Numbered from the stretch's first letter, positions 14,621-33,771 are shown. The stretch: 64,000 nucleotides of DNA from Planctomycetota bacterium (GCA_965228735.1 OZ245838.1:6752001-6816000); one strand, 5' to 3'. Translations and numbers: made by a program. Notes: generated by a model from the sequence alone, not told the origin.

Positions 14621-14622
14621 TC

Positions 14623-15414
14623 GTGAAGCGCTTCAAGGAATCGCTGAAGGACGCCGTGCGCCAGATGGCGTATCGGACGTCCGTGGACAGCCTCAAGAAG
14701 CGCGGCGTCCAGCAGGTCAACGTGCTCGGCATGGACCGCATCGTCTCGCTCGTCGAGGCGGCGGTGCACAAGAGCCTCAAGAGCAGGCTCGTCGGCATGG
14801 AGCGCGAGGCGGTCGCGGATGCGACCAAGGCCGAGTTCGTGCGCCTGATGCGCAACAACGAGGATCTGCAGCGCGAGAAGAGCGAGATCGAGCAGCAGAA
14901 GGAGCGCGCGCAGGAAGAGGTCGACATCATGCGGCGCGAGATCGCGCAGCAGGAGCAGGCCCTCAAGACCCGGCTCGACGAGGGCGCGCTCGAGGTCGCG
15001 AGCCGCTACGAGGGCGAGAATGCCGTGATCGCGCAGAAGGTGGCGGACGTGATGCGTTCGCTCCAGAGCCAGGGCGGCCTCGCGGGGGCCGAGACCAAGG
15101 TCATCGAGCTCGTGATGGACATCGTCCAGGACGAGCGCAAGGAGGCCGAGGAGGCCCGGGCGGCGCTCCGCGACCGCGAGGTCGAGAACCTGCGGCGCCG
15201 GATCACCAAACTCAACGACTCGCTCGCGCAGACCGAACATCGGTTGCAGTCGGTGTCCGCGATGAAGAACATCGACGACGGCATCTCTTCGATCTACCGG
15301 GAGGTCCAGGGGCTCGACGCCTCGGACCAGCAGGCCGGCAAGAAGAAGGAGCTCATGTCCGAGATCTTCCGCGCCAACCTGGAGTTGCAGCAGAAGGTCA
15401 AGAGCCGGCAGTAG
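14623..15414 (+). CDS. Cytoplasmic coiled-coil protein
   Basis: GTG start 2 nt after the previous stop; E/K/Q/R-rich heptad stretches; no signal peptide or TM segment. Confidence 0.8.
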   Translation: MKRFKESLKDAVRQMAYRTSVDSLKKRGVQQVNVLGMDRIVSLVEAAVHKSLKSRLVGMEREAVADATKAEFVRLMRNNEDLQREKSEIEQQKERAQEEVDIMRREIAQQEQALKTRLDEGALEVASRYEGENAVIAQKVADVMRSLQSQGGLAGAETKVIELVMDIVQDERKEAEEARAALRDREVENLRRRITKLNDSLAQTEHRLQSVSAMKNIDDGISSIYREVQGLDASDQQAGKKKELMSEIFRANLELQQKVKSRQ

Positions 15415-15479
15415 GCCGCGGGCAGACGCACACGCAGTACAGGCAGCAGCAAGACAGCAGGAACGCAGTAGGGAACAAG

Positions 15480-16825: not shown

Positions 16826-17545
16826 TCAGACTCCGAAGTGGGTTTGGAGGATGTCGCGGAGTTGGAAGAAGTCGGTGACTTCGTGGTTGGCCTTGGTTTG
16901 GCCTTCTTCCGTGCTGTAGCGGCCGCCGCGGCGGACTCGGACCGTGTGCCAGCCTTCGTTGTTGCAGGGGTCGATGTCGTGGGTGGGGTTGTCGCCGACG
17001 TAGAGGCAGCGGGCGGGCTCGAGCTTCATGTGTTCGAGCACGCGGCGGTAGAGCTTGGGGTTGGGCTTGCTGAAGCCGACCTGGTCCGTGAAGAAGATCG
17101 CGGAGGGGGTGAGGAACTCGAGGACCCCGAGGCGGACGACCTTCTCGGCCTGCTTGATCGTGATGCCGGCGGAGACGACACCGCGGACGAGCGGCTTGTC
17201 GGCGAGCCAGCGCAGGACCTCGTAGACGTCGTCCCAGACCTTGAGCTTGCTCCACTTGGTGTCGTGGTAGGCGCAGACGCCCGCGGCGACGATGACCGCG
17301 CGATTGTTGCCGTCCCAGGTCTCGTGGCCGAGGCGGTCGAGCACCTTGTCGAAGTGGCTGCCGTAGTTGCTCGAGAACTCGGCGATGACCTCCTGCAGCT
17401 CGCGCAGCGCCGCGTCGCGCTCGCAGCGCAGGCCCGCGCGTAGCATCGCGTCGATCGCGGCGCGACGGGCCTGATCGGCGAAGACCGACGTCGAGAACAG
17501 CGTGTCGTCGACGTCGAAGAAGATCGCGTCCAGGGCGGTGCTCAT
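16826..17545 (-). CDS. HAD-superfamily IA hydrolase, TIGR02253-like
   Basis: IFFDVDDTL motif I, SSNYGSHFD, IKQAEKVVRLG, KPNP motif III, YVGDNPTHDI motif IV. Confidence 0.88.
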   Translation of the reverse strand: MSTALDAIFFDVDDTLFSTSVFADQARRAAIDAMLRAGLRCERDAALRELQEVIAEFSSNYGSHFDKVLDRLGHETWDGNNRAVIVAAGVCAYHDTKWSKLKVWDDVYEVLRWLADKPLVRGVVSAGITIKQAEKVVRLGVLEFLTPSAIFFTDQVGFSKPNPKLYRRVLEHMKLEPARCLYVGDNPTHDIDPCNNEGWHTVRVRRGGRYSTEEGQTKANHEVTDFFQLRDILQTHFGV

Positions 17546-17621
17546 GGGCGTGCTCAGCTCCTTCGCGTGTCCGGTCCGGCGCTGGCGCGCGGGAAACACG
17601 CCGCGGGGGTCCTGCCTACGC

Positions 17622-17655
17622 AAAAGGCCGCGCCGATCGTAACCGGCGCGGCCTT
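17622..17655 (-). terminator. Intrinsic terminator after secretin 1
   Basis: Minus strand reads aaggccgcgccg-gttacgat-cggcgcggcc-tttt, about 45 nt after the stop at 17699. Confidence 0.75.
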
Positions 17656-17698: not shown

Positions 17699-20287
17699 TT
17701 ACCGCCCGACGCTGTTCACGACGTCCGTGATCTGCGCACGCACCATGACCATCAGGCTCTTGTTCTCGTCCACCGAGCCCTCCTGCTTGAACAGGAACGA
17801 GATCAGCGGCAGGCGCGCGAGCAGCGGGACCTCGGCGCGACGCTCCTTGGTCAGCACCTGGCGCAGACCGCCGAGCAGCACCGTGCCGCCGTCCGGCACC
17901 TTGGCAGTGGTCGAGAAGTTCGTGACCACGAGGTTCGGCAGCTGCAGCGTGACCGGCAGCGTCGAACCCGCGAGCGACGTGGTGAACGTCGGGATCGGGC
18001 GGGTCAGTTCGGCGACCGTCGGGTTGAGGTTGAGGATGATGTACTTCCGGTCCTGCTGGATGACCGGCTGCACGTCGAGCACGATGCCGTCCTGGATCAC
18101 GTCGACCTTCGGGTCGGCGATGAACGCCGCCTGCGCGACCTCGACGTCGAAGTCGCGGACGTAGGCCGTCTGGTTGATCACGGCGACATGGCCGCGCTCG
18201 CGGTTGAGCACCGAGAGGATCTGGCTGTTGACCATCTCGACGTCCTGCTGCTTCTCGACGGCGCGCAGGATCACGTTGAGCTGCAGGTCGTCGAGCAGCG
18301 TCCAGCCGGCCGTCAGACCGCCGGTCGGCGACAGCGCGCGGCTCAGGTCGTTGGCGAAGTAGTTCTCCGTGCGGCCGCGGATGTCACCGTCGCCGCCGTC
18401 GTTGAAGAACGCACCCGCGAGCGGGTTGGCCGCCGGATCGCCCGTGCCGCCGTTGTCGAGGCCGCGCGACGCGTTCGACTGCAGGCCGTTGGTCACGTCG
18501 TCGAGCGGCACGACCGTGCCCTTGTTGCCCGAGCCGCCGAGGCCGCGGATGTCGATGCCGACCTCGCTCAGGAAGTTACGCGAGATCGTCAGGAACTTGC
18601 TGTCGATCGTGACGATCGGCGTCGCGAAGCGGCGCATGTCGTTGAGCACCGTCTCGACCTGGGCCTGCATCTCCGGCGTCGCGGTGACCGCGAGGAAGCC
18701 CGAGTCCTCGGCGCGGATCTCGACGCCGTCACCGTCCCAGTAGATCGGGTCGGTCGCCTCGCGAACGTTGGTCACGAGGTCGGCGATCTCGATGTAGGAG
18801 ACCGGGTCCTCGCCCTCGCCACCCGTGCGCGGCACGTCGTCGAAGCCGTCCTCACCCGGGATGTCGCGGATCTTCGGCGGCAGGAACTGCGTGCGCTGGA
18901 AGACCAGGTCGCTGACCGGGTAGATCTCGGTCGTCAGCGTGCCGGCGGCCTGCGACTTGTCGCCGATCAGGATGACGCCGTTCTTGACCGTCCACGCCAG
19001 GTTCTCCGTGCGGTCGGTCATGTGGTTGAGGAAGTCGCGCAGCGTGACCGAGCCGACGAGCTCGATCGCGAGCACCATCGACTCGGTGTCGATGATGTCG
19101 CGCGCTTCCGGCGTCACGATGATCTGCAGCTGCGTGCGCAGGCTCAGATTGCGGATCACGTCGAGGTAGGCGCCCGTGTCCTCCGTGTAGGTCAGCTTGC
19201 CGACCTGCATCGTGTTGACCTGGTCCCAGACCGCCTGGTCCATCGGGTCCATGACGGCCGTCGTCGAACGGCGCGCCTTGCGGCCGTTGGCCCGCGCCCA
19301 GACCGCGAGGTCCATCTCGAGCACCGCCGTCTGCGGCACCTTGAGCTCCTCGTCCGCCTCCAGCATGCGGCGGATCGCCCGCGCGCGCTGCAGGTAGTAC
19401 TGCTGGTTGCTGTCCTCACGCGCGGCCTTGACCGCGGCGTTGTGCATCTCGGACGCGATCACGCTCGACGGATCGACGTCCTTCGCGCGCGTCGCGAGTT
19501 CTTGCGCGTAGGCGAAGCGCTGGTTCTCGAACGCCTTCTGCGCTTCGAGGATCAGCGCATCGTGCTGATCGCGGCGGCGCTTCTCGGCGGCCTCGTTCTC
19601 GGCGCGCAGACGCTCGGCGAGGCGGGCGCTCTCGGCCTCCTGGCTCGCCTTGACCTGCTCGTCGTAGAGCCCCTGCATCTCGTCCGTCTTGGCCGTGACG
19701 CGCTGCGGCAGATCCTGCCAGTCGACGAGGTCCTTGAGCTCGATGACCTGCGCCGCGATGCGCAGCTCCTCGAGCGCGCCGGCGTAGTCCATCGTGGCCG
19801 CGAGCTCGTCGGCCTTCTGCAGCTGCATCTCGACGTTGGTGCGCGCGCGGTCTTCGCCGATCTGGCGCAGACGCGTCTGCTCCTCGGCGAAGCTCACGAC
19901 CGTGCCGACCGGCTCACCGAGCTCGGCCTGCACGCTGATCAGCAGCTCGGCGATCTCGGTGTTGCCGGGCGCCATGCTCACCGCCTTCTGCAGCTCGCGC
20001 TTGGCCGCTTCGAGCTGGCCGCGCGTGCGCAGGGATTGCGCGTTGCTGACGTATCGCTCGACGAGCACCGCGCGGCGCTGCGCGTCGACGCCCTGCGGGT
20101 CCTGCGCCGCGCCACCGGCATTGCCGCTGTTGGCCATGCCGGGGTTGCCGCCCGTGTCGCCGCCAGGGTTGTTGGCCGCGGGGGTCGGGTCCGCCGGCTG
20201 CGGGTCGGCCGGCGACATGGAGCAGGAAGCGCCGAGCAGTGCGGCGATCAAAGAGACAGCGAGAAGGCGCGATTGTTCGAGGGCCAT
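17699..20287 (-). CDS. Lipoprotein secretin (GspD/PilQ-like C-terminus) with helical/TPR-like N-terminus, paralogue 1
   Basis: Lipobox LLGASC; N3-like LAVTATPEMQAQVETVLNDMR; IVTIDSKFL; GIVLDVQPVI; TTAKVPDGGTVLLGGL; VPLLARLPLISFLF. Confidence 0.88.
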   Translation of the reverse strand: MALEQSRLLAVSLIAALLGASCSMSPADPQPADPTPAANNPGGDTGGNPGMANSGNAGGAAQDPQGVDAQRRAVLVERYVSNAQSLRTRGQLEAAKRELQKAVSMAPGNTEIAELLISVQAELGEPVGTVVSFAEEQTRLRQIGEDRARTNVEMQLQKADELAATMDYAGALEELRIAAQVIELKDLVDWQDLPQRVTAKTDEMQGLYDEQVKASQEAESARLAERLRAENEAAEKRRRDQHDALILEAQKAFENQRFAYAQELATRAKDVDPSSVIASEMHNAAVKAAREDSNQQYYLQRARAIRRMLEADEELKVPQTAVLEMDLAVWARANGRKARRSTTAVMDPMDQAVWDQVNTMQVGKLTYTEDTGAYLDVIRNLSLRTQLQIIVTPEARDIIDTESMVLAIELVGSVTLRDFLNHMTDRTENLAWTVKNGVILIGDKSQAAGTLTTEIYPVSDLVFQRTQFLPPKIRDIPGEDGFDDVPRTGGEGEDPVSYIEIADLVTNVREATDPIYWDGDGVEIRAEDSGFLAVTATPEMQAQVETVLNDMRRFATPIVTIDSKFLTISRNFLSEVGIDIRGLGGSGNKGTVVPLDDVTNGLQSNASRGLDNGGTGDPAANPLAGAFFNDGGDGDIRGRTENYFANDLSRALSPTGGLTAGWTLLDDLQLNVILRAVEKQQDVEMVNSQILSVLNRERGHVAVINQTAYVRDFDVEVAQAAFIADPKVDVIQDGIVLDVQPVIQQDRKYIILNLNPTVAELTRPIPTFTTSLAGSTLPVTLQLPNLVVTNFSTTAKVPDGGTVLLGGLRQVLTKERRAEVPLLARLPLISFLFKQEGSVDENKSLMVMVRAQITDVVNSVGR

Positions 20288-20678
20288 CGGGTCACTCGGT
20301 GCGTGCAGAAGGGCTGAAGGAGCTGCGTCGTTGCAGCTCCCGTGCCCACGTGTCGAGAGGGGCTGAGTGCCGGCACGTGGACGGGACGAAACGACCGCTA
20401 GCTGGGGGCAGGCGGCCGGGAGGGACCGGAAACCTATCTACGGCCAGGGACCGGTGCCAGCGCTTTTTCAAGGTTGGAAGTCGTTGGCAAGGCCGGCGCT
20501 GGGGCCGATTTGCGGGGCGGCGCGGTTGCCCCGGGGCAGCGTTGCGCCGGAGCCCATGCGGCCCGGGTCGCGACGGGCGGCCCGGGTTCGCCGAGGTGTC
20601 GCCGGAGGGGGCTCTGGCGGGCCATGCGGCGCTCTCGGCCAGGGCCGCGCGAGCGCGGGCCCGGTCCTTTCGGCCCGC

Positions 20679-22244
20679 TCAGCGGCCCGTCAGCTCGTCG
20701 AGGATCGCGCGCGAGCGGGGGTGGGCCTCGCAGACTGTTCGGTCGCGTCGGTCGCGCGCGTGTGGGTCGGCGCCCGCGGCCAGCAGCACGCGGACGACGG
20801 GCCGCGGATCGACGCTGCGCCCGCACTGGAACGCGTGGAACAACGGCGACGCTCCCGTCTTCTCGTCGGGTCGGTCGACGTCGGCGCCGGCGTCGAGCAG
20901 CGCGGCGACCGTCGCCGCGAACCCGGCCTTCGCCGCGAAGTGCAGCGCGGCGCGGCGCCAGTACGGGTGCACGCGGTCGGGGTCGGCGCCGCAGTCCAGC
21001 AGCGCGCGCACGTACTCGGCGTCGTCCTTCTGCGCGTGGTTGCCGGTGCAGCTCTGCCACTGCCAGCTGCTCCACGGGTCGGATTCGTAGTTCACGTCCG
21101 CGCCGTGCTCCAGCAGCAGCGGCGCGAGATCGCCGTCGAGCACCCAGCGGCCGCAGCCGACGCGGGTCGCGTCGGCGCCGCGATCGAGGAGTTGCCGCAG
21201 CAGCTCGGGGTCGGGGGCCTCGGCCGCGTGCCGCACGAGTTCGTGGCTGCGTTCGCCGACCGTGGCGCCGCGGTCGAGCAGAAGCGTTGCGGTCATCGGC
21301 TGGTCGTGCAGGACGGCATGGTAGAGCGGCGTCAGTCCGAGGATGTCGTCAGCCGGGTCGGGCGTCTCGAGCAGTTCGGGGTGGGCGTCGAGCCAGCGCG
21401 ACACGCCGATCCGATCGCCGAGGGTCGCGGCCGTGAAGATGTCGTCGCGCGCGCCGAGCTCGAACAGCAGCTCGGCCGCCGCGGTCTTGCGCTGCCGCAG
21501 CGCGCCGCACAGCGGGGTCGCGAGCGGGCCGCTCCAGTCGATCGAGGTCGCGGCCGCCGGATCGGCACCCGCTTCGACGAGAACGGCGATCACCTCGACC
21601 CGACCGCGCGTCGCCGCGAGGTAGAGCAGGCTCGGGCTGCCCCACGCAGGTTCCAGCAGTTGCGGTCGTTCGGCGAGTGCAGTGCGGATCGCGGCGACGT
21701 CGCCCTTCTTCGCGGCCTTGACCGCCGCGTCGTGGACCGGGTCCTTGCCGCAGCGATGGCGGTCGGGGTCGGGCGGGCCCGTCGGGTCCTCGTCGTTGAC
21801 GAACGCGGTCGCGAGCGGCCGCAGGGTCGCGTGGATCTCGTCGCGCAGATCATTCGATACGCCGGCCATTCGCAGCGCGCGTTCGAAGTGGCCGAGCCAG
21901 CGCTGCGCGTCGCGCGGCGCGATCCGCGCGTGGCGGTGGCGCAGCCGCAGCCCGGCGCGCGCGCGGTGGCGCGAGTAGAGCGGTTCGCCGCCGAACCACT
22001 CCTCGAAGAACATCACCTGGTTCTGCCGTTCGAGCGCCTGGTCGCGCCGGAACATCGGGCGCAGCACCGGGTCGTCGTGGATGCCGTCGTAGAGGCCCTG
22101 CACGATCCGAGCCACGGTCTCGCGGCCGCCGAGCCGGTCGAACAGCGCCGGGTCGGGGCGGAGCCGGTCGACCTGCAGGTGCAGGCCGCCGCGGTGGGCG
22201 AGGGTGGGGTGGGGGGCGTCACCCGCGGGGTGGGGTGGCATCAT
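20679..22244 (-). CDS. Group II truncated haemoglobin fused to ankyrin repeats
   Basis: LFDRLGG...LYDGIHDDPVLRPMF...WFGGEPLYS...LRLRH (proximal His)...AQRWL, followed by ankyrin repeats TPLCGA, TPLYHAV, AALHFAAKAG...LLDAGADVD, SPLFHA. GAGGT RBS before ATG 22244. Confidence 0.85.
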   Translation of the reverse strand: MMPPHPAGDAPHPTLAHRGGLHLQVDRLRPDPALFDRLGGRETVARIVQGLYDGIHDDPVLRPMFRRDQALERQNQVMFFEEWFGGEPLYSRHRARAGLRLRHRHARIAPRDAQRWLGHFERALRMAGVSNDLRDEIHATLRPLATAFVNDEDPTGPPDPDRHRCGKDPVHDAAVKAAKKGDVAAIRTALAERPQLLEPAWGSPSLLYLAATRGRVEVIAVLVEAGADPAAATSIDWSGPLATPLCGALRQRKTAAAELLFELGARDDIFTAATLGDRIGVSRWLDAHPELLETPDPADDILGLTPLYHAVLHDQPMTATLLLDRGATVGERSHELVRHAAEAPDPELLRQLLDRGADATRVGCGRWVLDGDLAPLLLEHGADVNYESDPWSSWQWQSCTGNHAQKDDAEYVRALLDCGADPDRVHPYWRRAALHFAAKAGFAATVAALLDAGADVDRPDEKTGASPLFHAFQCGRSVDPRPVVRVLLAAGADPHARDRRDRTVCEAHPRSRAILDELTGR

Positions 22245-22251
22245 GGCCACC

Positions 22252-23240
22252 TCACGAGGGGCCGATCACCGCGGTCGCGGCATCGGACAGGGCGGCGCCC
22301 AGCGCGTTGCCGGCCTGTGGATCGAGCACGAGCGCCTGCAGGTGCAGGGTCCAGCCGACGAGGGTGGGCGTCGGCGGAATCGTGACGGCGATGTCGGCGT
22401 GTCCCGCCGTGCCCTGAACGAACAGCATCACCTCCGGCGCGACCCGAAGCGTGCAACCGGGCAGGCCGAATGCACTGAGCTCGAGCGGGAGCGGCCCGAG
22501 GCCCGAGGACGTCGCGTCGGTGCCGAGCGCGACGATTGCCGCCGCGAGGGGCAGGTTGTCGATGCGAACGACGGCCGTCGCGCCGAGGCGCGGCGGCGCG
22601 CTGGCGGTGAGCGTCGCGCGCGGCAGGCTGCCGGCGCACCCGGCGCCCAACGTCTCGAACGACCCCGGACCGAGGATCGCCGCGCCCTCAGGATGTGGAA
22701 CCCATTGGCCGCGACGGAGATCGCCGTGTACTGCACGCCGGCGGGCAACGTCGGCACGGGGGTCAGCCACGTCAGGTTGCCCCACAGCGTGATGCTCCCG
22801 TCACTGCGGAGGCCGGCGGAGAAGCCGGACCCGGCGGCGACTCCGGTGTAGGTCAGGCCGGGCGGCAGGGCCGGGACGTCGCACTGGTGCGAGTGGTTGT
22901 ACCCCCACGCGAGCGCGACGCCGTCGCTGCGGATCGCGAGCGTGTGCCGGTAGCCCGCGGCCACGGTCGTGTAGGTCTGACCGGGCGGCAGCGGCGGCAC
23001 GAGGCATTGGCCCTCGCGGTTTCGGCCCCAGGCCACGAGCGTGCCATCGGGTCGCAGGGCGGCGGTGTGGAACCCGCCGGCCGCGATCGCCGTGAAGCTC
23101 TCGTCGAGCCACGCGTCGTTCGTGACGGTCTCGCCCCACGTGGCGAGGGTCTGGGCGGCGAGCCCGGATGCGAGGCCAGTTGCGAGGCCGGCTGCGAGGC
23201 ACGGCGCAAGAACTGCGGCTGCGGGGGCCCGCATCAGCAT
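22252..23240 (-). pseudogene. Secreted RCC1-repeat protein with the shared C-terminal module, frameshifted near 22690
   Basis: Signal peptide and about four RCC1 units (IAAGGFHTAALRPDGTLVAWGRN) in one frame. The C-terminal module (GSFETLGAGC...LHLQALVLDP...LSDA) lies in another frame ending at 22252. Confidence 0.75.
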
Positions 23241-23393
23241 CCGCCAACCCGGGCGGCGCAGCGGTGAGTGACATCCCATGTCGGGACATCGTAGCCGATC
23301 GTGGTCACTCCGTACACGACTCGGCCCGCCGGGTCCTCGGGGACGCGGCGGGCCGGGTTGGTGCGGCCCCATCGGTCGGGGCGACTCGGGTCG

Positions 23394-23948
23394 CTACTTC
23401 TTGGCGCCGAGGCCGCCGCCGAAGTTGATCTCTTCGAACTCGGCCTCGTTGGCGGCGTCCGCCGTGCGGGCGACGCTCTCGTAGAACACGCCGGGGTGCG
23501 GCTCGATGACGACCGGCATGAGCTTGCGCGTGCCGGGGTTCTTCGGGTCCGGGACGCGGCTCGCCGGGTCACTCGAGATGCGCTTCAGCTCCTTGGCGAC
23601 GTCCTCGATGTCGTGGAGCGGCTTCGGGCCGACCATCCACTTCACCTTGTAGTTCTCCATGACGAAGCGATACGGGCGGTCGTTGTTGGGGTTGAGGTCG
23701 TTCGGCCCCATGCCGTTCGGATACTTGGGAGAGCCCTGCGATTCGACGTAGATGCCCACGGAGAGCTGCTCCATCGGCTCGACCTGCGTCGACTGGCTGC
23801 CCTTGTCCTTCGGCAGGTAGGCGGGGAGCTTGGCTTCGAGCACTTTGAACTCGATGCAGAGGAAGAAAATGATCATCAGGAAGACGCAGTCGATCATCGG
23901 CGTCATGTCCGCCTTGGCTTCTTCCTGTGCGTCGTCGATGGCACTCAT
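23394..23948 (-). CDS. exbD: ExbD/TolR family protein 2
   Basis: DMTPMIDCVFLMIIFFL TM helix with the conserved Asp; starts immediately after the stop of the upstream exbD. Confidence 0.88.
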   Translation of the reverse strand: MSAIDDAQEEAKADMTPMIDCVFLMIIFFLCIEFKVLEAKLPAYLPKDKGSQSTQVEPMEQLSVGIYVESQGSPKYPNGMGPNDLNPNNDRPYRFVMENYKVKWMVGPKPLHDIEDVAKELKRISSDPASRVPDPKNPGTRKLMPVVIEPHPGVFYESVARTADAANEAEFEEINFGGGLGAKK

Positions 23949-24491
23949 CTACTTGCCCTCCAGCAGACTCTTGTTCTTCTCTTTGGTTTCCTTGTCCTCT
24001 TCGGACAGGGCGAGCTCGACCTTCCAGAACGCGATGTGCGGCTGGCTGCACTGCTTCATGATCTCGCCGATGTAGTGCCACTCGGTCCACTTGTCGGCGC
24101 GGATCAGGATCGGGTCGTCGATCAGCTTGACCATCTTGCCGCCGATGTCCTCGTCGACGATCTTGAGCTTGCCGGTCAGTTCGCCCTCGCGGCGGATGTT
24201 CTCGAGCAGGATGCGGATCTTGGTGTAGTCCTTGCCGTCGACGAGCGCGTCGTAGATCACTTCGCCCTCGAAGATCACCGAGCCGTTCTGCAGCACGTTG
24301 ATGATCGGCCGGTTCTCGGGCGGCTGGTCATCGGGCTCCTGGAACTCCGCGCGCGGCAGGATCAGGTCCTCGAGGTTCTTCTGGCTCAGGTCGATGACCA
24401 ACACGAAGAAGATCATCAACAGGAACACGCAATCGATCATGGGCGTCATGTCCATGTCGAGCTGCTCCTGAGCGACTTTTTGCATGTCCAT
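23949..24491 (-). CDS. exbD: ExbD/TolR family protein 1
   Basis: DMTPMIDCVFLLMIFFVL; ILIRADK; AGGAGG RBS. Confidence 0.92.
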   Translation of the reverse strand: MDMQKVAQEQLDMDMTPMIDCVFLLMIFFVLVIDLSQKNLEDLILPRAEFQEPDDQPPENRPIINVLQNGSVIFEGEVIYDALVDGKDYTKIRILLENIRREGELTGKLKIVDEDIGGKMVKLIDDPILIRADKWTEWHYIGEIMKQCSQPHIAFWKVELALSEEDKETKEKNKSLLEGK

Positions 24492-24603
24492 TGGTTCGCC
24501 TCCTTTGGCGGTAGGACTTCAGTAGGAGTTGGGAACGCGGACCGACGCCCGATGGTTCAACCCGCTGGCGCGCGGGTCGACTGCCGGGCGTCGATGCTGG
24601 CTC

Positions 24604-25332
24604 CTACTTGCGGAACCGCTCGAACAGGTCTTCCGTGACCGCGTTGATCTCGGTCGACGTGCGGATGACGCGGTTGCGCAGCGTGAAGAACGCGACGCCG
24701 ACCGGGATGGCGACCGTCAGACCGAACATGGTCGTGATGAGCGCCATCTTGATGCCGCCCGCGAGCTGTGCCGGCGACACCGAGCCGCCCGCGTCGGCGA
24801 TCTTGCCGAACGTGACGAACATGCCCGACACCGTGCCGAACAGACCCATCATCGGCGCGATGGCCGAGATCAGCGACAGCCAGCCGATCTTCTGGAACAG
24901 CTTGACCGACTCCTCGGTCTGCATTTCACGAACCGACGTCTGGATCGTCTCGTGCGGGTGGCCGAGCTTGGCCAGGCCGGCGCCGACGACGTTCGTCAGG
25001 TAGTTCTTCTCCTGCTCGCAGAGCTCGACGGCGTCCTGGAAGCTCTCGCCGTCGAACAGCGCTTCGAGCTCGTCGATCAGGTCCGGCGGCGCGAGCTTGT
25101 CGCGCTTGATCGTCATGAAGTTCTCGATGATCAGCGCGACGGCGACGATCGAGAGGACGATGATGAGGTAGCCGATCGGGCCGGCGTTGTCCCACTTGAA
25201 GACCTCGATGATCGGGCTCGAGGACTTGCTGCCCTCACCGCCTTCGGCTTCCTGGGCAAGCAGCGAGGTTGCCAGGACGAGCGGCGTGCCGACGGCAAGG
25301 AGACGAACGAAGGGCACTTGGTTCAGGATCAT
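24604..25332 (-). CDS. exbB: MotA/TolQ/ExbB proton-channel protein
   Basis: IAPMMGLFGTVSGM and LAGGIKMALITTMFGLTVAIP; N-terminal cleavable-looking signal peptide. Confidence 0.92.
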   Translation of the reverse strand: MILNQVPFVRLLAVGTPLVLATSLLAQEAEGGEGSKSSSPIIEVFKWDNAGPIGYLIIVLSIVAVALIIENFMTIKRDKLAPPDLIDELEALFDGESFQDAVELCEQEKNYLTNVVGAGLAKLGHPHETIQTSVREMQTEESVKLFQKIGWLSLISAIAPMMGLFGTVSGMFVTFGKIADAGGSVSPAQLAGGIKMALITTMFGLTVAIPVGVAFFTLRNRVIRTSTEINAVTEDLFERFRK

Positions 25333-25604
25333 GGTGACGCGATGGCTGCGTTCCGTTCACGCAGCAGTTCAGTTAGGGGAGAGGGGGATACGAACAGCGA
25401 GCCACCGGCGATCGGTCGGCCTGGGTTGGACCGGCGAGGGGCTGGACGCCGAGAGGCAAGAAGGGGGACACCCGAAAGGGGGGCCAGAGTTTGCGGCAGA
25501 AGGCCGGACTGGGGAAGTCCCTAGGGCAGAAACCTGGGGACGGAAAACGGGGTGGTGGCGCCGCGGGCGGCGCCACCCGATGGGGTGCGGACAGCCGCTC
25601 GGCG

Positions 25605-26777
25605 CTACTGCTCCAGGGCCGCTTTGGCCCTGCTGGCCCATTCGGTCCTGGGGTAGTGCTGGACGACCCGGCGGAAGTAGGCTTGCGCGCGCGCCTTGAA
25701 CTCGTCGCCCTCGCGCGCTTGCCCGAGCTCGAGCTGGCAGCGGCCGAGGAAGTAGTTCGCGCGGGCGCTGGTGTCGCCACCGAGCGAGTCCATGACCGCG
25801 GCGCGGGCGAGCGCGAGCTGGGCCTTGCGCAGCATGGCCGGCTCCTTGTTGCCGCCCATCGCCTTGAGGAAGACCGCCTGGCCCTCACCGGCCCACGCGG
25901 CCGCGGCGAGACCCATGTCCTTGCTCTGCGTCAGGCCGTGGAAGAACGACTCGGCCCGCTGGAAGTTCTCGTCGGTGAGGAAGGTCTCGCCCTCGCCGAT
26001 CTTGCTGAGCACCTGCAGTTGCTTCAGTTCTTCCTCGTCGCCGGGCGAGTTCTGCATCGCGCTCTCGGCGGCCGAGTGGGCCGTCTGGAACTGCGTGCGG
26101 GCTTCGCCGGTCTTGTTGTTGGACGCGAGCGTCAGGCCGAGCTCGTACTTGGCACGGGCACTCCACACCGACCCGAACGCTTCGGCGATGGCGCGATCAT
26201 CGAGGGTCTTGAGCACCGTCGCGGCGTCGTCGCCCTTCTGCGCGAGCCGCAGCGCGCGGCCCGCGAGCAGCAGCGCTTCGGGAACGCGCCAATGGTCGTT
26301 GTTGGCCGTGACCCACGCCTGCGCGCGCTCGGCGGCCGTGGCTGCCGCGCTCGCGTCCGTGATCGCGGCGACCGCCGCCTTGATCTGGAAGAACTCGCAG
26401 TCGGTCACGACGAGCGGGCGCTTCGCCGCGCTGGCCGCTTCGCCGAACATCTGCGTCGCGGTGTCGAAGTCGCCGCGCTCGAGCGCGGCGCGGCCGATGA
26501 TGAACGGCTCGGGCAGGTTGCCCCACTCGACGCTCGCGACCGTGCGGCCGGGGATCTCGACCTCTTCGCCACCCTTCTTGGTGGCCTTGACCGTCTCGCG
26601 CTTGAACTCGGTGATCTCGATGCCGCGCATCGTCGCGCCGTTCTTGCGCACGAGGACGTCGCTCTGCGCGGGCGCCGGCGTCACGAACACAGTGGCCGCG
26701 ATGGTGGCGGTCAGGAGGAGCTTCCTGGCAAGGACAGGCTTCCCGGCGAGGGGCTTCATGGTGTTGTCGGTTTGCAT
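25605..26777 (-). CDS. Exported TPR-like protein
   Basis: Start at MQTDNT or MKPL (26759); signal peptide ending TPAPAQ; helical repeats; C-terminal FRRVVQHYPRTEWASRA resembling BamD/CpoB-type TPR ends. Confidence 0.8.
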   Translation of the reverse strand: MQTDNTMKPLAGKPVLARKLLLTATIAATVFVTPAPAQSDVLVRKNGATMRGIEITEFKRETVKATKKGGEEVEIPGRTVASVEWGNLPEPFIIGRAALERGDFDTATQMFGEAASAAKRPLVVTDCEFFQIKAAVAAITDASAAATAAERAQAWVTANNDHWRVPEALLLAGRALRLAQKGDDAATVLKTLDDRAIAEAFGSVWSARAKYELGLTLASNNKTGEARTQFQTAHSAAESAMQNSPGDEEELKQLQVLSKIGEGETFLTDENFQRAESFFHGLTQSKDMGLAAAAWAGEGQAVFLKAMGGNKEPAMLRKAQLALARAAVMDSLGGDTSARANYFLGRCQLELGQAREGDEFKARAQAYFRRVVQHYPRTEWASRAKAALEQ

Positions 26778-26794
26778 CGTTCGGGTGCTCCGGA

Positions 26795-29650
26795 TCAGCG
26801 GTTGTAGAGGAACATGTTGAAGAGCTCCTGGCCCTTGCTGCCGAGGCTCTTGAGCGTCGCGAAGTCGTCGGTCGCGCGCGCCTTGCGGTAGAACTTCTGC
26901 GCGGTCTCCTCGTACTTGCTGTCCTTCTTCGCCGCCTGCTTGGCGAACCAGTAGCACTCCCAGTGGAAACGGTACCACTCGTAGCTGTACGGCTGGACCG
27001 CGGGGCGGAGCGCCCACTTGCGGTACTCGGTGTAGTACTTGAGGTAGGCCTCTTCGGCGCGGTCCAGTCCCGGCTCGCGGACACCCTGCCCGGTCGCGTT
27101 GAACTCGAACCAGCCGCCGAGGCAGCGCGAGATCTGGCGCTTGATCTCCCACTGCTCGGGGTTGGCCTCCTCGGCCTTCTCGAGCATCTCGAGCGCGACC
27201 GTGAACTTGCGCTGCTGCAGCAACGCCTCGCCGATCATCGGCCGGACCGTGAGGTCGACGACCTTCTGCGCGGCCGGGTCGGTGTCCTCGCCGTAGAGGT
27301 CGAGCGTCTTGCGCGCGATCTCGCCGACGCGCTGCCACTCACCGAGGGCCTCGAACGCGTTCATCGTGTTGACGAGCACGGCGATCTGCGGCTTGGGTGA
27401 GCTGTTGATGTAGTCGAGGCCGAGCGCGCTGAGCTTCTGCCGCACCTGCTCGAGCTGCTGGCGCGCGGCTTTCTGCGCGGTCTCGTCGTCCTTGCTGATC
27501 GCGGCCGTGAGCTCGTCGTCGAGCGACTTCTCCTGGTTGCGGTACTCGAGGAAGATCTCGGTCGCGAGGCGCGCGGCGCGCGTCTGGTCCTTCTGCTTGA
27601 GCGTCGCGTACATCTCCTCGGCGCGGTCGAGCTCGCCGATGTCGCAGAACAGGCGGCCGAGGTAGGCCGTCGCGATCGGGACGTTGGGGTTGCTCGGGTT
27701 GTTGGTCGAGAACGCCTTGAGCTTGGCGATCGCGTCCTGGTACTTGGTCGCGTCCTTCTCGATGTTGAGCTCCTCGTTGCCGCGCGCCTGGAAGTAGGCG
27801 AGCTGGGCCTCGAGCAGTTCGCCGCTCGCGAGCGCCGCTTCGCGGACCTGCTGCAGGCCAGCGTCGCGCGCGTCGATCTCGTTCTGCTTCGTGTACTCCC
27901 GGTACTCCTCGAGCGTCTTGATCGCCTGGTCGACGTTGCCGCCGAACGCCTCGGCCATCGCAACGCGCACCCGCGCGGTCTCGTACTGCGTGAAGTCCGG
28001 CGGCACCTGGCGGTACTGCTCGGCCGCGCGCTTGTAGTTCTTCTCCGTGAAGGCCGCGTTGCCCTCCTTGTAGAAGATCTTGCCCGCGCCGGCGATCGAG
28101 TAGGTCTTGATCAGGTTGGCGTACTGGTCGAAGACCGGATCGAGCAGCGGGTCGTTGTTGGTCTGGCGCTTGAGGCGGGTGATCGCGCGGTCGAGGCGGT
28201 CGGCAGCGTCGCCGGCCTGGTCCTCGTCGGTCGCGCCGAACTTCTCGAGTCCGGTGCCGAGCGCGATGATGGCCTCGAGGTTGCGCTCGCCGATCGCGAA
28301 CGCGGTGCCGAGCATGTCCCAGGCCTCGAGTCCGACCTCCTGCTCCTCCTGCGCGCTCATCACGGACAGCGCGCGACGCAGGCCCTGGATCGCGGCCTCG
28401 TAGTTGTCGTTCTGGAACTCGCCCTTGGCGATCTCGAACAGCATCTTGCCCGAGACCAGGCTCTGCTGGGCCTCGAGCATGTCGCGCATGGCCGACTTGG
28501 CCTTGATGCCGACGTAGTCGTTGGGGTGCTTGTTGTTGATGCGCTGCACCATCGCGATCGCCTCGGCGATCTTGCCCTGCTCGCCGGACTCGGCCTTGTA
28601 GCGCGCCTCCTCGAGCAGCATGAGGTGGCCCCAGCGCGGCGACACGACCTCGAACACCTCGAGGCCCTCCTGGCCGAACTTGGTCGCGAACTCGCGGAAC
28701 GACGCGAACAGCGCCGGGGTGTCCGGGCTGCCCTGCTCCGACAGCACCTCGGCGGTCTTGTAGAACACCTCCTGCGCCATCTCGTAGAGCAGCGCCTGGG
28801 TCTCGCCCGGCATGCCGGTGTCCGGCGCGTCCTTGAGGCTGGTCTGGATCTGATCGATCGTCGCCTGGTAGATGTCGATCGCGCCGTCGACGTCGCCGTT
28901 GACCTGGAAGCACTGCGCGATCTCGAACAGGCCGCGCAGACCGAGCGCGGTCTCCTCACCGTAGTCGAGGACCATCTCCTCGAGCTCGCCCACGGAGCGC
29001 TCGACGAGCACGTCGCGGTCCTGCTTGACCGCGCGCGCCTGCTCGCGCATGAGCACGCCCTTGCGCATCCAGAACAGGCCATACTCGATGTTCGTCCGCT
29101 CGTCCTTGCGGCGCTGCCCTTCGAGCTCCTCCATGACCTTGCTGCAGGCTTCGATGCCGGCGCGGAACGTGTCCGACGCCTCGCTCTCGAGCTGGCCCAC
29201 GGCCTCGGGGTTCTCCTCGCGCGCGATCTCGAGCTCCTGCAGCAGGAACTGACCGAACTCCTGCGAGGCGTCCGCGAGCGTGCCGCGCGCCTGCAGCAGG
29301 ACCTTGTCGTCGTTGCTGCGGCCGATCAGCTCCTTGGACTTCTCGATCGCTTCCTTGAACAGCGTGCGCTGGACCTCGCGGTCGGCGCGCAGCTTGGCGC
29401 CCTGGTAGCTGATCTGGACGCTGAGTTGGGCGATGCGGTCCTGTTCACCCGCGGCGCGATGCTCCGTCGCGAGGCGGTCGGCCTCGGACTTCGCGAGTTC
29501 GATGAAGCTCATCTTCTCCGCGAGCGCGCGGACGAAGTCGAGCTCGCGATCGAGCGAGTCCTGGGCCAGGAGGAGGGAGGACGAAACGCCGGTCAACGCC
29601 GGGCCGAGAAACGCCGTGAGAATGGCGAGTCGAATGCCGGTCACAAGCAA
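26795..29650 (-). CDS. Large exported TPR/alpha-solenoid protein (951 aa)
   Basis: N-terminal signal peptide; TPR-like units such as GLFEIAQCFQVNGDVDGAIDIYQ, LFEIAKGEFQNDNYEAAIQGLR, FYKEGNAAFTEKNYKRAAEQY. Confidence 0.85.
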   Translation of the reverse strand: MLVTGIRLAILTAFLGPALTGVSSSLLLAQDSLDRELDFVRALAEKMSFIELAKSEADRLATEHRAAGEQDRIAQLSVQISYQGAKLRADREVQRTLFKEAIEKSKELIGRSNDDKVLLQARGTLADASQEFGQFLLQELEIAREENPEAVGQLESEASDTFRAGIEACSKVMEELEGQRRKDERTNIEYGLFWMRKGVLMREQARAVKQDRDVLVERSVGELEEMVLDYGEETALGLRGLFEIAQCFQVNGDVDGAIDIYQATIDQIQTSLKDAPDTGMPGETQALLYEMAQEVFYKTAEVLSEQGSPDTPALFASFREFATKFGQEGLEVFEVVSPRWGHLMLLEEARYKAESGEQGKIAEAIAMVQRINNKHPNDYVGIKAKSAMRDMLEAQQSLVSGKMLFEIAKGEFQNDNYEAAIQGLRRALSVMSAQEEQEVGLEAWDMLGTAFAIGERNLEAIIALGTGLEKFGATDEDQAGDAADRLDRAITRLKRQTNNDPLLDPVFDQYANLIKTYSIAGAGKIFYKEGNAAFTEKNYKRAAEQYRQVPPDFTQYETARVRVAMAEAFGGNVDQAIKTLEEYREYTKQNEIDARDAGLQQVREAALASGELLEAQLAYFQARGNEELNIEKDATKYQDAIAKLKAFSTNNPSNPNVPIATAYLGRLFCDIGELDRAEEMYATLKQKDQTRAARLATEIFLEYRNQEKSLDDELTAAISKDDETAQKAARQQLEQVRQKLSALGLDYINSSPKPQIAVLVNTMNAFEALGEWQRVGEIARKTLDLYGEDTDPAAQKVVDLTVRPMIGEALLQQRKFTVALEMLEKAEEANPEQWEIKRQISRCLGGWFEFNATGQGVREPGLDRAEEAYLKYYTEYRKWALRPAVQPYSYEWYRFHWECYWFAKQAAKKDSKYEETAQKFYRKARATDDFATLKSLGSKGQELFNMFLYNR

Positions 29651-29864
29651 CTCCGGATCGGGGACTGAAAGTCGTCGCGCGCAGTCGTTACCCGGAATGA
29701 GGTAACGAGTTACGGCTATACGAGGGCGGGTCTCGGAGGGGCCGCCAAGAGGCCCGCCGGGGAGGGAGAACGAAGGACTATAGCGACTCGTTCACTCGTT
29801 CCAACGATTAACGACCCCACCGGACGACCCGTCCTTGCCCGATCCGGGCTTCGGCCGCCAATGC

Positions 29865-29898
29865 AAAACGGCCGGCCCCGCGTCGCGGGGCCGGCCGT
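29865..29898 (-). terminator. Intrinsic terminator after secretin 2
   Basis: Inverted repeat acggccggccccgcg-t-cgcggggccggccgt; followed by a T-run on the minus strand, about 50 nt after the stop at 29951. Confidence 0.75.
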
Positions 29899-29950
29899 CG
29901 GAATTGGCCGTCTCGGGATCGGCCGTCTCGGTTGCCGATGGGGGCGGCGC

Positions 29951-32599
29951 TCAGCGCGCGCTCGTCATCAGCACTTCGCCGCTCGGCGTCGTGACCGCGC
30001 GCGGCTCGTGCTCTTCCATGAGGATGATCTTGGCGCGGATCAGGATCAGGATCTTGCGGTTCTGGACCGACGTGCCCTGACGGCTGAAGAGCCAGCTCAG
30101 GCCCGGCAGGCTGCCGAGCAGCGGCACCGTCGAGCGCAGGTTCTGCTTCTCGCTGAGGCGCATGCCGCCGAGCATCATCGTGCCGCCATCGGGCATCGTG
30201 ACCGTCGTGCGGACGCGCTGCAGTGTGACTTCGGGCAGCTGGATCGAGATCGGCTGGCCGACGCCGAGCGTCGTCGTGAACGTCGGGATCGGCAGCTGCA
30301 GCGACATGACCGTCGGGCGCAGCTCCATCGTGATGAAGCGCAGGTCGCTGTCGACCACGGGGCGGACGTCGAGGGCGACGCCGTCGTGGACCGTGCCGAT
30401 GACCGGGTTGGCCACCGCGGCCGCCTGCGCGATTTCGACCTCGAAGTCGCGGATGTAGCTGATGTTCCGCAGGTGGTGCATCGAGGCGCGCGAGTTGTTG
30501 TAGATCAGCAGGCGCGGGGCCTCGATCTGCTCGCTGCGCTCCTGCTTCGCCACGGCGCGCAGCACGATCTCGACCTCGGTGTCGTCGAGGAACGCGTACT
30601 GGAGCGCGAGGCCGCCGGAGTTCTCGAGGCCGCCGTTGCGGCCGCCGAGCGTGCTGTCGTAGAGGCCCTCGGTGCGGGCCATGAGGTCACCGTCGAGGCC
30701 GTCGTCGAGGAAGACGCCCGGCTCGGTGCCGGTGCCGACGAGGCCCGGGGTCGCGGCGTTCTGCTGCTGGCGCGGGCCGAACTCGTCGAAGCCGGCGTTC
30801 GTGCGGATGCCGTTCTTCTCGAGGCCGCGGCCGGCGAGACCTTCGGACGACTGGTTGCCCAGGCCGCGCAGGTCGATGCCGAGGTCCTCGAGGAACTGGT
30901 CCTCGACCTTGAGGAAGCGCGACTCGACGTCGACCTGGATGCCGACGTGGCGGCGCAGCTCGTTGAGCAGGCGGTCGATCTCCATGTGCGCCTCACGATC
31001 GGCGCGGATGTAGAGGATGCCGCTCAGCAGGTTCATCGTGAACGGGTTGCTGTCCCACTTCTCGGGCGCGACCGTCGCGGTCAGCAGCTCCATGAGACGG
31101 CCTTCGTCGACGACCGATGGCATCGGGTCTTCGTCGACCTCGGGGAACAGCGGCAGGTCGTCGCCCGGCACCGGCAGGCGCAGGTCGGGACCCGGGTTGC
31201 TGCGCACGCCCTGGATCAGGTCGGAGACCATGTAGGGCTGCAGGTAGAGCAGGCCGATCGCGTTCTCCGGGCTGACGAGGTGGACCATGCCGTCGCGCAC
31301 GCGGTAGGCGACGCCGGTCTGCGACTGGATCGCGCGCATGGCGTCCGACACCGAACGGTTCGGCAGGCGGAAGTCCTCGAGCGTCGTCTGCTCGGCGGGC
31401 ATGTCGCGGACTTCCTGCGTCACGAAGAACGTCACGCCCGTCAGGCCGGCGTAGTAGCTCGCCCAGTCGTCGACCGTCGCGCTCGAGAAGTTGTGCTCGA
31501 GGCGGGTCTCGTTGAGGATGCGCGCGATCTCGCGGTTCTCCGGCGTGTCGAGCGCGGCCGGCGGGGTGTAGCTCGCGGCGGTCCGCTGCGACACGTTCGC
31601 CCAACGCGTCGGATCGAACACGACCGAGTCGACCTGCGGCAGGTTGCTGTGCTGCAGCTCGAGGAACGTCTTGTTCCACTCGGTGCGCCAGCGCTCGCGC
31701 GCGGTCTCCATCGCCGTCGCGTGGCGCGCGCGGTCCGCGAGGTCACGCAGCGACATCGCCGTCGGGTTCGTCGGGTCGCGCAGCAGCGCTTCGTCGACGT
31801 AGTTGAGCGAGCGCTCGTACTGACCCGACTGGAACGCCAGGTTGGCCTCGTCGAGGATGCGCTGGACCGCGAGCTCCTTGGCCGCGCGGGCCTCGGTCTC
31901 CTGCTTGCGCAGCTCGGCGGCCGACTGCTCTTCGCGGCGCTTGATCTCGTTGACCTGCGCCTCCTGCTGGGCGTCCTGCGCGCGCGCGAGCAGCATCTCG
32001 GCGCGGCGCTTGAGCTGGTCGTTCTCCTGCGCGTAGAGCGAGTACTGCATCACCGTCACGGCGCGCTGGAAGTGATCGATCGCGCGGCCGTAGGCCTTGG
32101 TCTCGAGCATCGCTTCGCCGAGCTGCAGCTCCTTCTCCACGAGGGCGCGCTCACGCTCGAGGCGCACGCGATCCATGATGATCGCTTCGTCGAGCGCGTT
32201 GCCGACGCGGACGCCGGTGCCGGCATCGCCGAGGATGTCGTTGCAGCGGCGCAGGATGTCGCGGGCCTCTTCGTTGTTGTTGTCGAGCTCGAGCGCGTAG
32301 GCCGCCTCGTTGCGGGCGTCTTCGAAGAGCCGCAGCTCGAACGAACGGCGCGCACTCTCGACCGCCTTCTGCGCCTGCACCTGCGCGCGGCCCTGGCCCT
32401 GACCTTGCGGGTCTTGCGGGGTCGCCGCGGCCGAGGTCATGGCACTGGTGTCGGCCGAATCGTCAGCCGGTTCGGTGAGGGCGGTGGCGTCGTTGTCGTT
32501 CGGCGTGAGGCCGCCGAAGTGCGCCGGCGAACCGGAGCACGCTGCCAGGGCGAGCAGCGCGAGGAAGCCATTCGAGCGCAGGGTCTGAACCTTGATCAT
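29951..32599 (-). CDS. Lipoprotein secretin with helical/TPR-like N-terminus, paralogue 2
   Basis: Start MIKVQTL; lipobox LALAAC; LYIRADREAHMEIDRLLNELR; QVDVESRFL; GVALDVRPVV; TTVTMPDGGTMMLGG; VPLLGSLPGLSWLF. Confidence 0.88.
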   Translation of the reverse strand: MIKVQTLRSNGFLALLALAACSGSPAHFGGLTPNDNDATALTEPADDSADTSAMTSAAATPQDPQGQGQGRAQVQAQKAVESARRSFELRLFEDARNEAAYALELDNNNEEARDILRRCNDILGDAGTGVRVGNALDEAIIMDRVRLERERALVEKELQLGEAMLETKAYGRAIDHFQRAVTVMQYSLYAQENDQLKRRAEMLLARAQDAQQEAQVNEIKRREEQSAAELRKQETEARAAKELAVQRILDEANLAFQSGQYERSLNYVDEALLRDPTNPTAMSLRDLADRARHATAMETARERWRTEWNKTFLELQHSNLPQVDSVVFDPTRWANVSQRTAASYTPPAALDTPENREIARILNETRLEHNFSSATVDDWASYYAGLTGVTFFVTQEVRDMPAEQTTLEDFRLPNRSVSDAMRAIQSQTGVAYRVRDGMVHLVSPENAIGLLYLQPYMVSDLIQGVRSNPGPDLRLPVPGDDLPLFPEVDEDPMPSVVDEGRLMELLTATVAPEKWDSNPFTMNLLSGILYIRADREAHMEIDRLLNELRRHVGIQVDVESRFLKVEDQFLEDLGIDLRGLGNQSSEGLAGRGLEKNGIRTNAGFDEFGPRQQQNAATPGLVGTGTEPGVFLDDGLDGDLMARTEGLYDSTLGGRNGGLENSGGLALQYAFLDDTEVEIVLRAVAKQERSEQIEAPRLLIYNNSRASMHHLRNISYIRDFEVEIAQAAAVANPVIGTVHDGVALDVRPVVDSDLRFITMELRPTVMSLQLPIPTFTTTLGVGQPISIQLPEVTLQRVRTTVTMPDGGTMMLGGMRLSEKQNLRSTVPLLGSLPGLSWLFSRQGTSVQNRKILILIRAKIILMEEHEPRAVTTPSGEVLMTSAR

Positions 32600-32946: not shown

Positions 32947-33771
32947 CTACTTCGGCGGCACTTCCGGTCGGCCGAGTATGCGATTCACGCGCTTGATGTC
33001 CTCCCAGGTCTCGCGCTTCCGCGACGGCTCGCGCAGGAGGTATGCCGGATGCCAGGTCACGACGACCGGCACCCCGCGGTAGTCGAGTTCCTGACCGCGC
33101 AAGCGGGTGGCCGATTCCTTGCGGCCGAGGAGGTTTTGCGCGGCGATCCGGCCGAGGCAGACGATCGCCTGCGGGCGGACGAGCTCGACCTGTTCTTGCA
33201 GATACGGCAGGCAGGCTGCGACTTCGTCAGGCTGGGGCTCGCGATTGTTCGGTGGACGGCATTTGTTGATGTTCGCGATGTAGACCTCGTCGCGGCCGAA
33301 CCCCATCGCATTGGCGATGATCTTGTCGAGCAGCTGACCGGCCGCGCCGACGAACGGCCGCCCCGTGCGGTCCTCGTTCGCGCCCGGCGCCTCGCCGACG
33401 AACATCACGGGCGCGCCGATCGCGCCTTCGCCGAAGACCACGTTGGTGCGGTGCTCGCACAGCTTGCACTGCTCGCACGAAAGCGCCCGGGTCTTGAGCG
33501 CGGCGAGCGGATCGGCGGTTGCGGGAGACGGGTCGGCGGTGGGGGCGGGGGCGCTGGTCGGGTTCGCCGCTGCGACCGGTGGCGACTTGCGCGAGCTCGC
33601 CGGTCGCGGCGCGGTGGCCGGCGATGCCGCGGCAGGTTGCCCGACTTGCGCCGCCGGTTGCCGGGCCGGCGCCGCCGGTGCGGCTCGCTGCACGGGCAGC
33701 GTGAGTTCGCTGCCGTAGGCCTGCTGCAACCGTTCGAGGTGGAGCGTCAGGTGATCGCGGTGGACCGCCAT
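32947..33771 (-). CDS. Family-4 uracil-DNA glycosylase with Pro/Ala-rich N-terminal linker
   Basis: CEQCKLC, VMFVGEAPGANED, GRPFVGAAGQLL, NINKCRPPNNR, TWHPAYLLR. Confidence 0.93.
   Translation of the reverse strand: MAVHRDHLTLHLERLQQAYGSELTLPVQRAAPAAPARQPAAQVGQPAAASPATAPRPASSRKSPPVAAANPTSAPAPTADPSPATADPLAALKTRALSCEQCKLCEHRTNVVFGEGAIGAPVMFVGEAPGANEDRTGRPFVGAAGQLLDKIIANAMGFGRDEVYIANINKCRPPNNREPQPDEVAACLPYLQEQVELVRPQAIVCLGRIAAQNLLGRKESATRLRGQELDYRGVPVVVTWHPAYLLREPSRKRETWEDIKRVNRILGRPEVPPK

Follow-up and report, generated by a model that had tools for sequence, protein, structure and literature searches.

Twin secretins bracketing TPR proteins and an ExbB/ExbD motor in a planctomycete: a possible pilus-derived channel coupled to a proton motor

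A stretch of 64,000 nucleotides from a Planctomycetota bacterium (the window; GCA_965228735.1, OZ245838.1:6752001-6816000, equivalent to G000:C1:6752001-6816000, where G000 is the 7.19-Mb genome under study) encodes two lipoprotein secretins, A and B, that bracket two tetratricopeptide repeat (TPR) proteins and an ExbB/ExbD-type proton motor. The explanation tentatively preferred here is that of a pilus-derived twin-secretin channel that would be coupled to the proton motor and would likely import polymers. That the motor and the secretins are physically coupled, for whichever cargo, is somewhat favoured on gene order and co-occurrence; the substrate, namely surface-bound polymers taken into the periplasm, is the weakest step of the explanation. 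The minus-strand order of secretin A, TPR-L, TPR-s, exbB, exbD, exbD, two inserted genes and secretin B is exactly as the original prediction had read it from the sequence, and the order goes beyond chance since it is kept across the phylum. Genomes, loci and families carry the labels G, L and f, f1 being the family of G000. The parts of the block are:

32599-29951, minus strand: secretin A, 882 aa, lipoprotein with helical N-terminus and C-terminal secretin domain (PF00263, E 1.4e-24)
29868..29898, minus strand: terminator-like hairpin 3' of secretin A, 15-bp arms, z -4.3, then UUUU
29650-26795, minus strand: TPR-L, 951 aa, TPR Pfam matches, cleavable signal peptide predicted from sequence
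26777-25605, minus strand: TPR-s, small five-strand domain and TPR solenoid, predicted periplasmic
25332-24604, minus strand: exbB, ExbB/TolQ-like proton channel subunit (PF01618, E 2.8e-25)
24491-23949, minus strand: exbD 1, ExbD/TolR-like (PF02472, E 3.5e-14), TPMID aspartate
23948-23394, minus strand: exbD 2, ExbD/TolR-like (PF02472, E 6.3e-14), TPMID aspartate
20287-17699, minus strand: secretin B, 862 aa, lipoprotein (PF00263, E 1.3e-22)
17624..17655, minus strand: terminator-like hairpin 3' of secretin B, 12-bp arms, z -4.7, then UUUU

Linkage between the secretins and the motor genes was followed with the C-terminal 333 residues of secretin B as query, which at a threshold of E 1e-25 matches 227 of 301 genomes of the phylum. 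Genes were called by our own script in 20-kb regions around the matches, and a secretin was counted as linked when it lay no more than 12 kb from TPR-s and exbD on the same strand. By this measure 59 of 87 genomes, belonging to 44 of 65 families, show the linkage, and in 48 of the 87 (34 families) the TPR-motor genes lie between two secretins, the genomes being chosen rather than random, as many of the first 40 had both secretins on one contig and later ones were taken one per family. The 20-kb windows and contig ends may cut genes off, and L051-L057 as well as the paralogue loci are excluded from this count.

The motor genes retain the residues expected of a proton path. Both ExbD proteins of G000 have the TPMID aspartate and its ExbB keeps the GTV and ALxTT threonines, so that, as judged from sequence, the combination of ExbD transmembrane aspartate and ExbB threonines that marks the 5:2 proton motors of the ExbBD/TolQR kind is present; the aspartate recurs in 123 of 161 ExbD sequences, the remaining 38 being unmatched by the pattern, and both threonine motifs in 47 of 61 ExbB sequences. 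The best NCBIfam matches of the block are TolQ, TolR and, weakly, YbgF/CpoB. TPR-s, which measures 390 aa from its ATG or 400 aa from an in-frame codon further upstream, is modelled at a predicted local distance difference test score (pLDDT) of 91 as a five-strand domain joined to a TPR solenoid; with the whole protein as query, fold searches return generic TPR superhelices only, and the ESM Atlas gives TPR or hypothetical clusters only, mostly from Planctomycetota. Its family is present in 251 of the 301 genomes.

Since TPR-L, TPR-s and ExbB start with apparent cleavable signal peptides, the block holds no membrane-anchored TonB or TolA. The original prediction let periplasmic TPR proteins alone connect the motor to the pore; a TonB-like transducer encoded in trans is likelier. 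Two unlinked proteins of G000 that came up in a motif scan (3922590-3924110 and 3926596-3928110) each combine a PWxxxSxxxH anchor with an acidic proline-rich linker and a squalene-cyclase-like barrel, which provides the single S-x3-H anchor, long linker and globular C-terminal domain typical of TonB/TolA-like transducers. Members of this barrel-headed family lie inside the TPR-motor block in G038 (L043:9479-12889, two copies, between the secretins) and in G168 (L123:7413-9110), and the S-x3-H anchor is kept in 35 of 39 open reading frames from 30 loci. The family is present in 248 of the 301 genomes, often as tandem pairs, and it co-varies with TPR-s: both are present in 237 genomes, both missing in 39 and discordant in 25, the presence lists having been transcribed by hand, the 39 double negatives falling in about ten families and thus not being independent, and some of the TPR-only discordant cases being unrelated 1120-aa proteins. 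PilB/GspE is still carried by 37 of the 39 genomes that have neither barrel family nor TPR-s. TonB and its receptor gave two TonB_C and three receptor matches in G000 but none in the window, which is thus no Ton-system locus, and a scan of 9 of the 23 listed downstream genes gave no von Willebrand (vWA) match. The barrel-headed SxxxH protein is put forward, on its sequence features and its co-occurrence with TPR-s, as the likely missing force transducer of the TPR-motor block. Elsewhere in G000, a second TPR-exbB-exbD operon (G000:C1:954213-962106, plus strand; L157) is followed by a gene for a 1210-aa PD40 propeller protein whose C-terminus is the same cyclase-like barrel as that of the unlinked TonB-like proteins.

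Secretins A and B both exceed the PF00263 cut-off and so belong to the secretin superfamily, scoring 87-91 and 81-84 bits, respectively, with the five other secretins of G000 at 129-147 bits. They are 29% identical over 868 residues and have the lipoboxes LAAC (A) and GASC (B). In profile scoring both fall below all PilQ, GspD, MshL and SctC cut-offs, and the best fold matches of secretin B are BfpB, PilQ, InvG and GspD. The model of secretin B (117 sequences; pLDDT 83, predicted template modelling score 0.56) predicts a disordered tether, helical hairpins plus a long coiled coil at 68-340, and a secretin domain at 558-854, with alpha/beta domains that are termed N0/STN-like (348-450) and N3-like (452-555) from their predicted secondary structure. 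A secretin tree (FastTree, 316 columns), which supplied the A/B typing used below and was not used to order events, places A and B in separate clades within a large group around G000 and as lineage-wise pairs elsewhere. Related secretins 1350-1650 aa long occur in f13 and f98 (L138-L142, L107), where they mostly follow a gene pair of ~1100 aa and 310-420 aa, the smaller product being a peptidyl-prolyl isomerase in L107; three tandem secretins stand behind pilM-N/pilO in L099 (G050), and the single-contig 3.9-Mb genome G161 has neither a secretin match nor a T2SSE ATPase match.

The neighbourhood of secretin A in relatives points to a pilus ancestry that the original prediction had missed. In 46 of the 87 genomes (40 of the 65 families), pilM-N, a gene in the pilO position and/or a gene with FN3 matches, here termed X, stand upstream of secretin A. 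The upstream PilM-N proteins reach 224-248 bits against Amuc_1101_fam, under the curated cut-off of 650, and the Amuc_1100 structures rank first for a profile of the pilO-position family (6LAD, E 2e-7, 256 positions), a family in which 8 of 33 members give weak NF038287 matches, under the curated cut-off. None of 38 X proteins matches the Amuc_1099 model, FN3 matches being the only ones, and no Amuc_1102-like pilin was seen at the loci, no search having been aimed at Amuc_1102. The cluster-linked PilM proteins form a clade of their own (32 linked rows and one unlinked, support 0.94) that includes none of the three PilMs of G000 and whose branches are long in the closest relatives of this genome; a very divergent linked PilM-like row, that of L075, falls outside it. 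A full-length match to X is found in f2 (4 of 4 genomes), f5 (2 of 2), f8 (2 of 2) and f9 (14 of 24) and in none of 25 f1 genomes, nor in f3, f6, f7 or f10, and linked pilM-N, pilO and X are missing from both the locus and the genome of G000. The PilM gene at G000:1411210 had been considered as a displaced linked PilM and was rejected, being a separate paralogue that coexists with linked PilM in G031, G061 and G214. From these sequence comparisons, the block appears to descend from a type IV filament-like locus, of which f1 has lost the alignment module pilM-N/pilO/X while keeping secretins, TPR proteins and motor together. The alignment module is the part that docks the pilus ATPase.

Secretin machines are powered by cytoplasmic ATPases. 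As the original prediction had it, no GspE/PilB, GspF/PilC, pilin, TonB or TonB receptor is near the block: whole-genome family searches place no T2SSE ATPase, T2SSF platform, TonB_C or TonB-receptor match in the window, a six-frame scan shows no pilin N-terminal motif there, and the nearest T2SSF match lies 22 kb before the window start. PilB, PilT and PilC were likewise not detected by tblastn in 125 fetched loci plus the window, with control matches in G000 numbering 12 and 4. ATPase, platform and pilin, which would make the locus a canonical type IV pilus (T4P) or type II secretion system (T2SS) cluster, are absent from it and all present elsewhere in G000. The proposed coupling of a secretin to a motor driven by the proton-motive force thus gains from the linkage, from the conserved proton-path residues and from the lack of ATPase and platform in 125 loci; independence from an ATPase is not supported, because T2SSE, T2SSF and pilin genes and a secretin-less pilin cluster exist elsewhere in G000.

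In the proposed mechanism, secretins A and B would form a lipid-anchored, perhaps mixed pore whose long helical N-termini reach into the periplasm, and ExbB with two different ExbDs would make up a 5:2 rotary motor on which the unlinked SxxxH-anchored barrel protein may dock in the manner of TonB or TolA. TPR-L and TPR-s would bridge transducer and secretin and either gate the pore or pull substrate, and capture of the substrate may still fall to a pilus or pseudopilus assembled by an ATPase from another locus. An import role is suggested because the ancestral module is homologous to MUL2 of Akkermansia and because planctomycete crateriform structures carry dextran-binding fibres. The fullest version is doubtful: here an ExbB5-ExbD1-ExbD2 motor would open or drive a hetero-oligomeric secretin pore by way of TPR bridges and a TonB-like arm with a barrel head, and the machine would in f1 have shed the pilus alignment complex, use no secretion ATPase and be the crateriform uptake structure.

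Several observations weigh against a coupled, importing channel. The original prediction had proposed that gene order be followed through relatives and had named unlinking there as a refutation; most families (44 of 65) are linked, and in 21 of 65 the modules are unlinked. In f13 (L118-L120), TPR-L/TPR-s/exbB/exbD/exbD stand with no secretin nearby, the secretins of 1400-1650 aa being located elsewhere (L138-L142), and in f40 (L103, L104, L106) pilM-pilO-X-secretin occurs free of TPR or motor genes in genomes in which TPR-s was not found; secretins and TPR-motor genes therefore do not need each other as neighbours. Every piece is present but scattered in f17, and f40, f11, f49 and f74 have a single secretin and no TPR-s that could be found. 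The hairpins after each secretin, together with gaps of ~280-360 bases, speak for several transcripts; both hairpins are stronger than in shuffled sequence (none of 200 shuffles as strong) and agree with the predicted terminator for each secretin, a stricter scan demanding five T listing neither. Eight exact RNA contigs, 151-306 bases long and with a depth of 3-7, that lie on exbB, both exbD genes and both secretins were not counted as evidence, since they come from two runs of one sample, were found using these genes and are possibly DNA, none being listed over a control stretch. Membership of the Amuc_1098 family (NF042912) was rejected for the secretins at 45.5 and 75.4 bits against a cut-off of 750, the best-matching stretch being their C-terminal part. 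A hint of sulfated-glycan substrates also failed: a sulfatase-fold/TPR gene lies within the block, before secretin B, in 15 loci (L058-L080), and as its nucleophile is Thr rather than Cys or Ser in 13 of 13 readable cases, it is no pointer to sulfated glycans. Furthermore, 296 of the 301 genomes carry PilB/GspE, and a pilin cluster that has no secretin accompanies A/B-type secretins in 43 of 56 genomes versus 1 of 24 others, a comparison confounded by a profile built from five A/B-type genomes; in G071, G110 and G072, from three families, that cluster lies ~15 kb or less from the block.

These last points belong to the strongest competing explanation, in which the twin secretins serve as the pore for a conventional T4P/T2SS-like system run on ATP, with ATPase, platform and pilins encoded elsewhere, the TPR-motor block being separate or accessory; it is held to be rather unlikely, if the most credible of the competitors. 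It draws on the ancestral order pilM-N/pilO/X/secretin, on the unlinked modules, and on the content of G000, which has 15 T2SSE matches, 13 T2SSF matches and 13 pilin-like genes, several of them in loci with no secretin, including orphan PilB-PilT-PilB, PilB-PilT-PilC-pilin and PilC loci. The secretin-less pilin cluster (G000:C1:1399582-1414788, minus strand; L135) encodes an FHA protein, pilM-N, pilO, a 904-aa TPR protein, pilin-like genes and a 1735-aa PilX/GspK-like protein, has no ATPase either, and is conserved in 44 of 80 genomes. Given this companion cluster and the orphan ATPase loci, a pilus through the twin secretins is therefore conceivable. The co-occurrence with a pilin set elsewhere, which the original prediction had named as contrary evidence, shows in a count that its profile biases. 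TPR-s and the barrel family are concordant in 276 of 301 genomes (237 + 39). The other test that the original prediction proposed, phylogenetic profiling against PilB/GspE, was uninformative, since nearly every genome carries them; the five genomes that do not, all f47, also have no cluster secretin and no true TPR-s, which decides nothing because f47 members keeping PilB have neither as well. Against a pilus pore, the linked PilM-N/O/X were lost in f1 while the secretins remained beside the motor genes; the canonical secretins of G000, one in a pilMNOQ operon and one with no neighbouring ATPase, could serve the orphan loci; and an arrangement in which two secretins enclose the motor genes, as in 34 families, would be hard to maintain without a shared function.

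An unlikely alternative is an envelope tether or pore-assembly device, with the secretins as press-stud anchors in crateriform structures and a Tol-like motor that serves their assembly or positioning or maintains the outer membrane, in place of transport. The NCBIfam affinities to TolQ, TolR and weakly YbgF/CpoB would suit it, as would the predicted long helical periplasmic N-termini of the secretins, the envelope-modifying neighbours (the Thr-type sulfatase-like gene, glycosyltransferases) and the fastening of inner to outer membrane by crateriform structures, reported in PMC5394234. However, no TolA, TolB or Pal was recognised in the loci, to which the search was confined, f13 genomes keep the motor block apart from the secretins, and the secretin domain is complete. 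More improbable still is proton-powered export of proteins or polymers through the secretins in a type IX-like manner. Secretins are mostly export pores, and many secreted-looking proteins of G000 with a common C-terminal tail were seen in passing, both of which speak for export, but the block contains no substrate or protease and the closest tested homologues, those of MUL2, are tied to uptake. The AglRQS architecture consists of one TolQ-like and two TolR-like subunits. An Agl-Glt-like surface motility motor with the secretins as outer-membrane anchor would fit the one TolQ-like and two different TolR-like subunits found here with TPR proteins, a MamK-like actin operon that abuts the block in f1, and the gliding considered for PVC TPR-tolQ-tolR-tolR loci in PMC12204202, but is very improbable, as no Glt-like genes were recognised among recurring neighbours (no Glt profile being searched) and the actin neighbour is confined to f1 (11 of 11 f1 genomes, none in other families).

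Further genes lie within and beside the block:

23372/23295-22252, minus strand: inserted RCC1-repeat gene (RCC1_2 match), frameshift near 22690
22250-20679, minus strand: inserted truncated-globin/ankyrin gene (PF01152 and Ank matches)
16826-17599, minus strand: HAD hydrolase, TIGR02253-like, after secretin B in most loci

The RCC1-repeat and globin-ankyrin genes are peculiar to G000, being found at that place in no other locus, and stand outside the conserved block; at the frameshift of the RCC1-repeat surface-protein gene, a contig of run X4, possibly the source sample, has identical letters. The HAD hydrolase adjoins secretin B, with 55 secretin-HAD adjacencies across the phylum, and a uracil-DNA glycosylase (32947-33440, minus strand) is upstream of the block in 30 loci across the phylum, neither with an apparent link to the machine. 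A three-gene operon at window positions 13856-16559 (plus strand) encodes a ParA/CpsD-like P-loop protein, a coiled-coil protein and a MamK-family actin (NF040964, 409.9 bits against a cut-off of 400), and faces the HAD gene in convergent orientation in all 11 f1 genomes examined and in five named metagenome-assembled genome loci, and in no other family.

In Akkermansia, MUL1, which we take to hold TPR and ExbB/ExbD genes, is a locus separate from MUL2. MUL1 and MUL2 mediate mucin transport, MUL2 including amuc_1099-1102, periplasmic glycan accumulation depends on mul genes, and aquatic Akkermansiaceae have no MUL1 synteny (PMC13174399); 10.1101/2025.02.20.639370 identifies mul1A as amuc_0544 and MUL1 as required for mucin transport, and the pilus-like cluster Amuc_1098-1102 of MUL2 is covered in PMC5332112 and PMC12418764. 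Relatives of G000 resemble MUL2 in lining up a PilM-N fusion, an Amuc_1100 homologue, a third gene and a large secretin at a locus that lacks an ATPase. They differ in their two secretins, both far under the Amuc_1098 cut-off, in the built-in TPR and motor genes and in a third gene of FN3 type with no Amuc_1099 match, and G000 itself has lost the pilM-N/O/X module. The TPR-tolQ-tolR-tolR loci of the Planctomycetes-Verrucomicrobia-Chlamydiae (PVC) bacteria, accompanied by vWA-headed force transducers (PMC12204202), share a TPR gene, a single tolQ-like gene, a pair of differing tolR-like genes and a TonB-like transducer anchored by an SHLS-type motif; the word 'secretin' does not occur in that paper. 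In contrast, the present block has two TPR genes and flanking secretins and shows no vWA gene, and its candidate transducer, mostly encoded away from it, has a squalene-cyclase-like barrel at its C-terminus. With T4aP pilMNOPQ and T2SS loci it shares the secretin fold and, in relatives, a PilM domain, differing in the helical N-terminus, the lipobox, the paired secretins and the absence of ATPase, platform and pilin at the locus. With Ton, Tol-Pal and AglRQS-Glt it shares ExbB/TolQ and ExbD/TolR with their proton-path residues, whereas no TonB, TolA, TonB receptor, TolB, Pal or Glt gene was recognised at the locus and the motor partner is apparently a secretin.

Both halves, the pilus-like locus and the TPR-motor locus, thus have described kin, and a categorically new system, which a coupling without an ATPase would make of them, is improbable. 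In the open-access full-text literature, no publication was found that connects a secretin with an ExbBD/TolQR motor. A secretin worked by an ExbBD-type motor, if true, would join two transport paradigms. Planctomycetes import intact polysaccharides by an 'unknown mechanism' (PMC11131199), and their crateriform structures join both membranes and carry dextran-binding fibres, the mechanism of uptake being described as unknown in PMC5394234. The block offers candidate genes for this polysaccharide import and for the composition of crateriform structures; it also raises the possibility that the mucin-uptake loci MUL1 and MUL2 of Akkermansia represent the two halves of a single older PVC machine.

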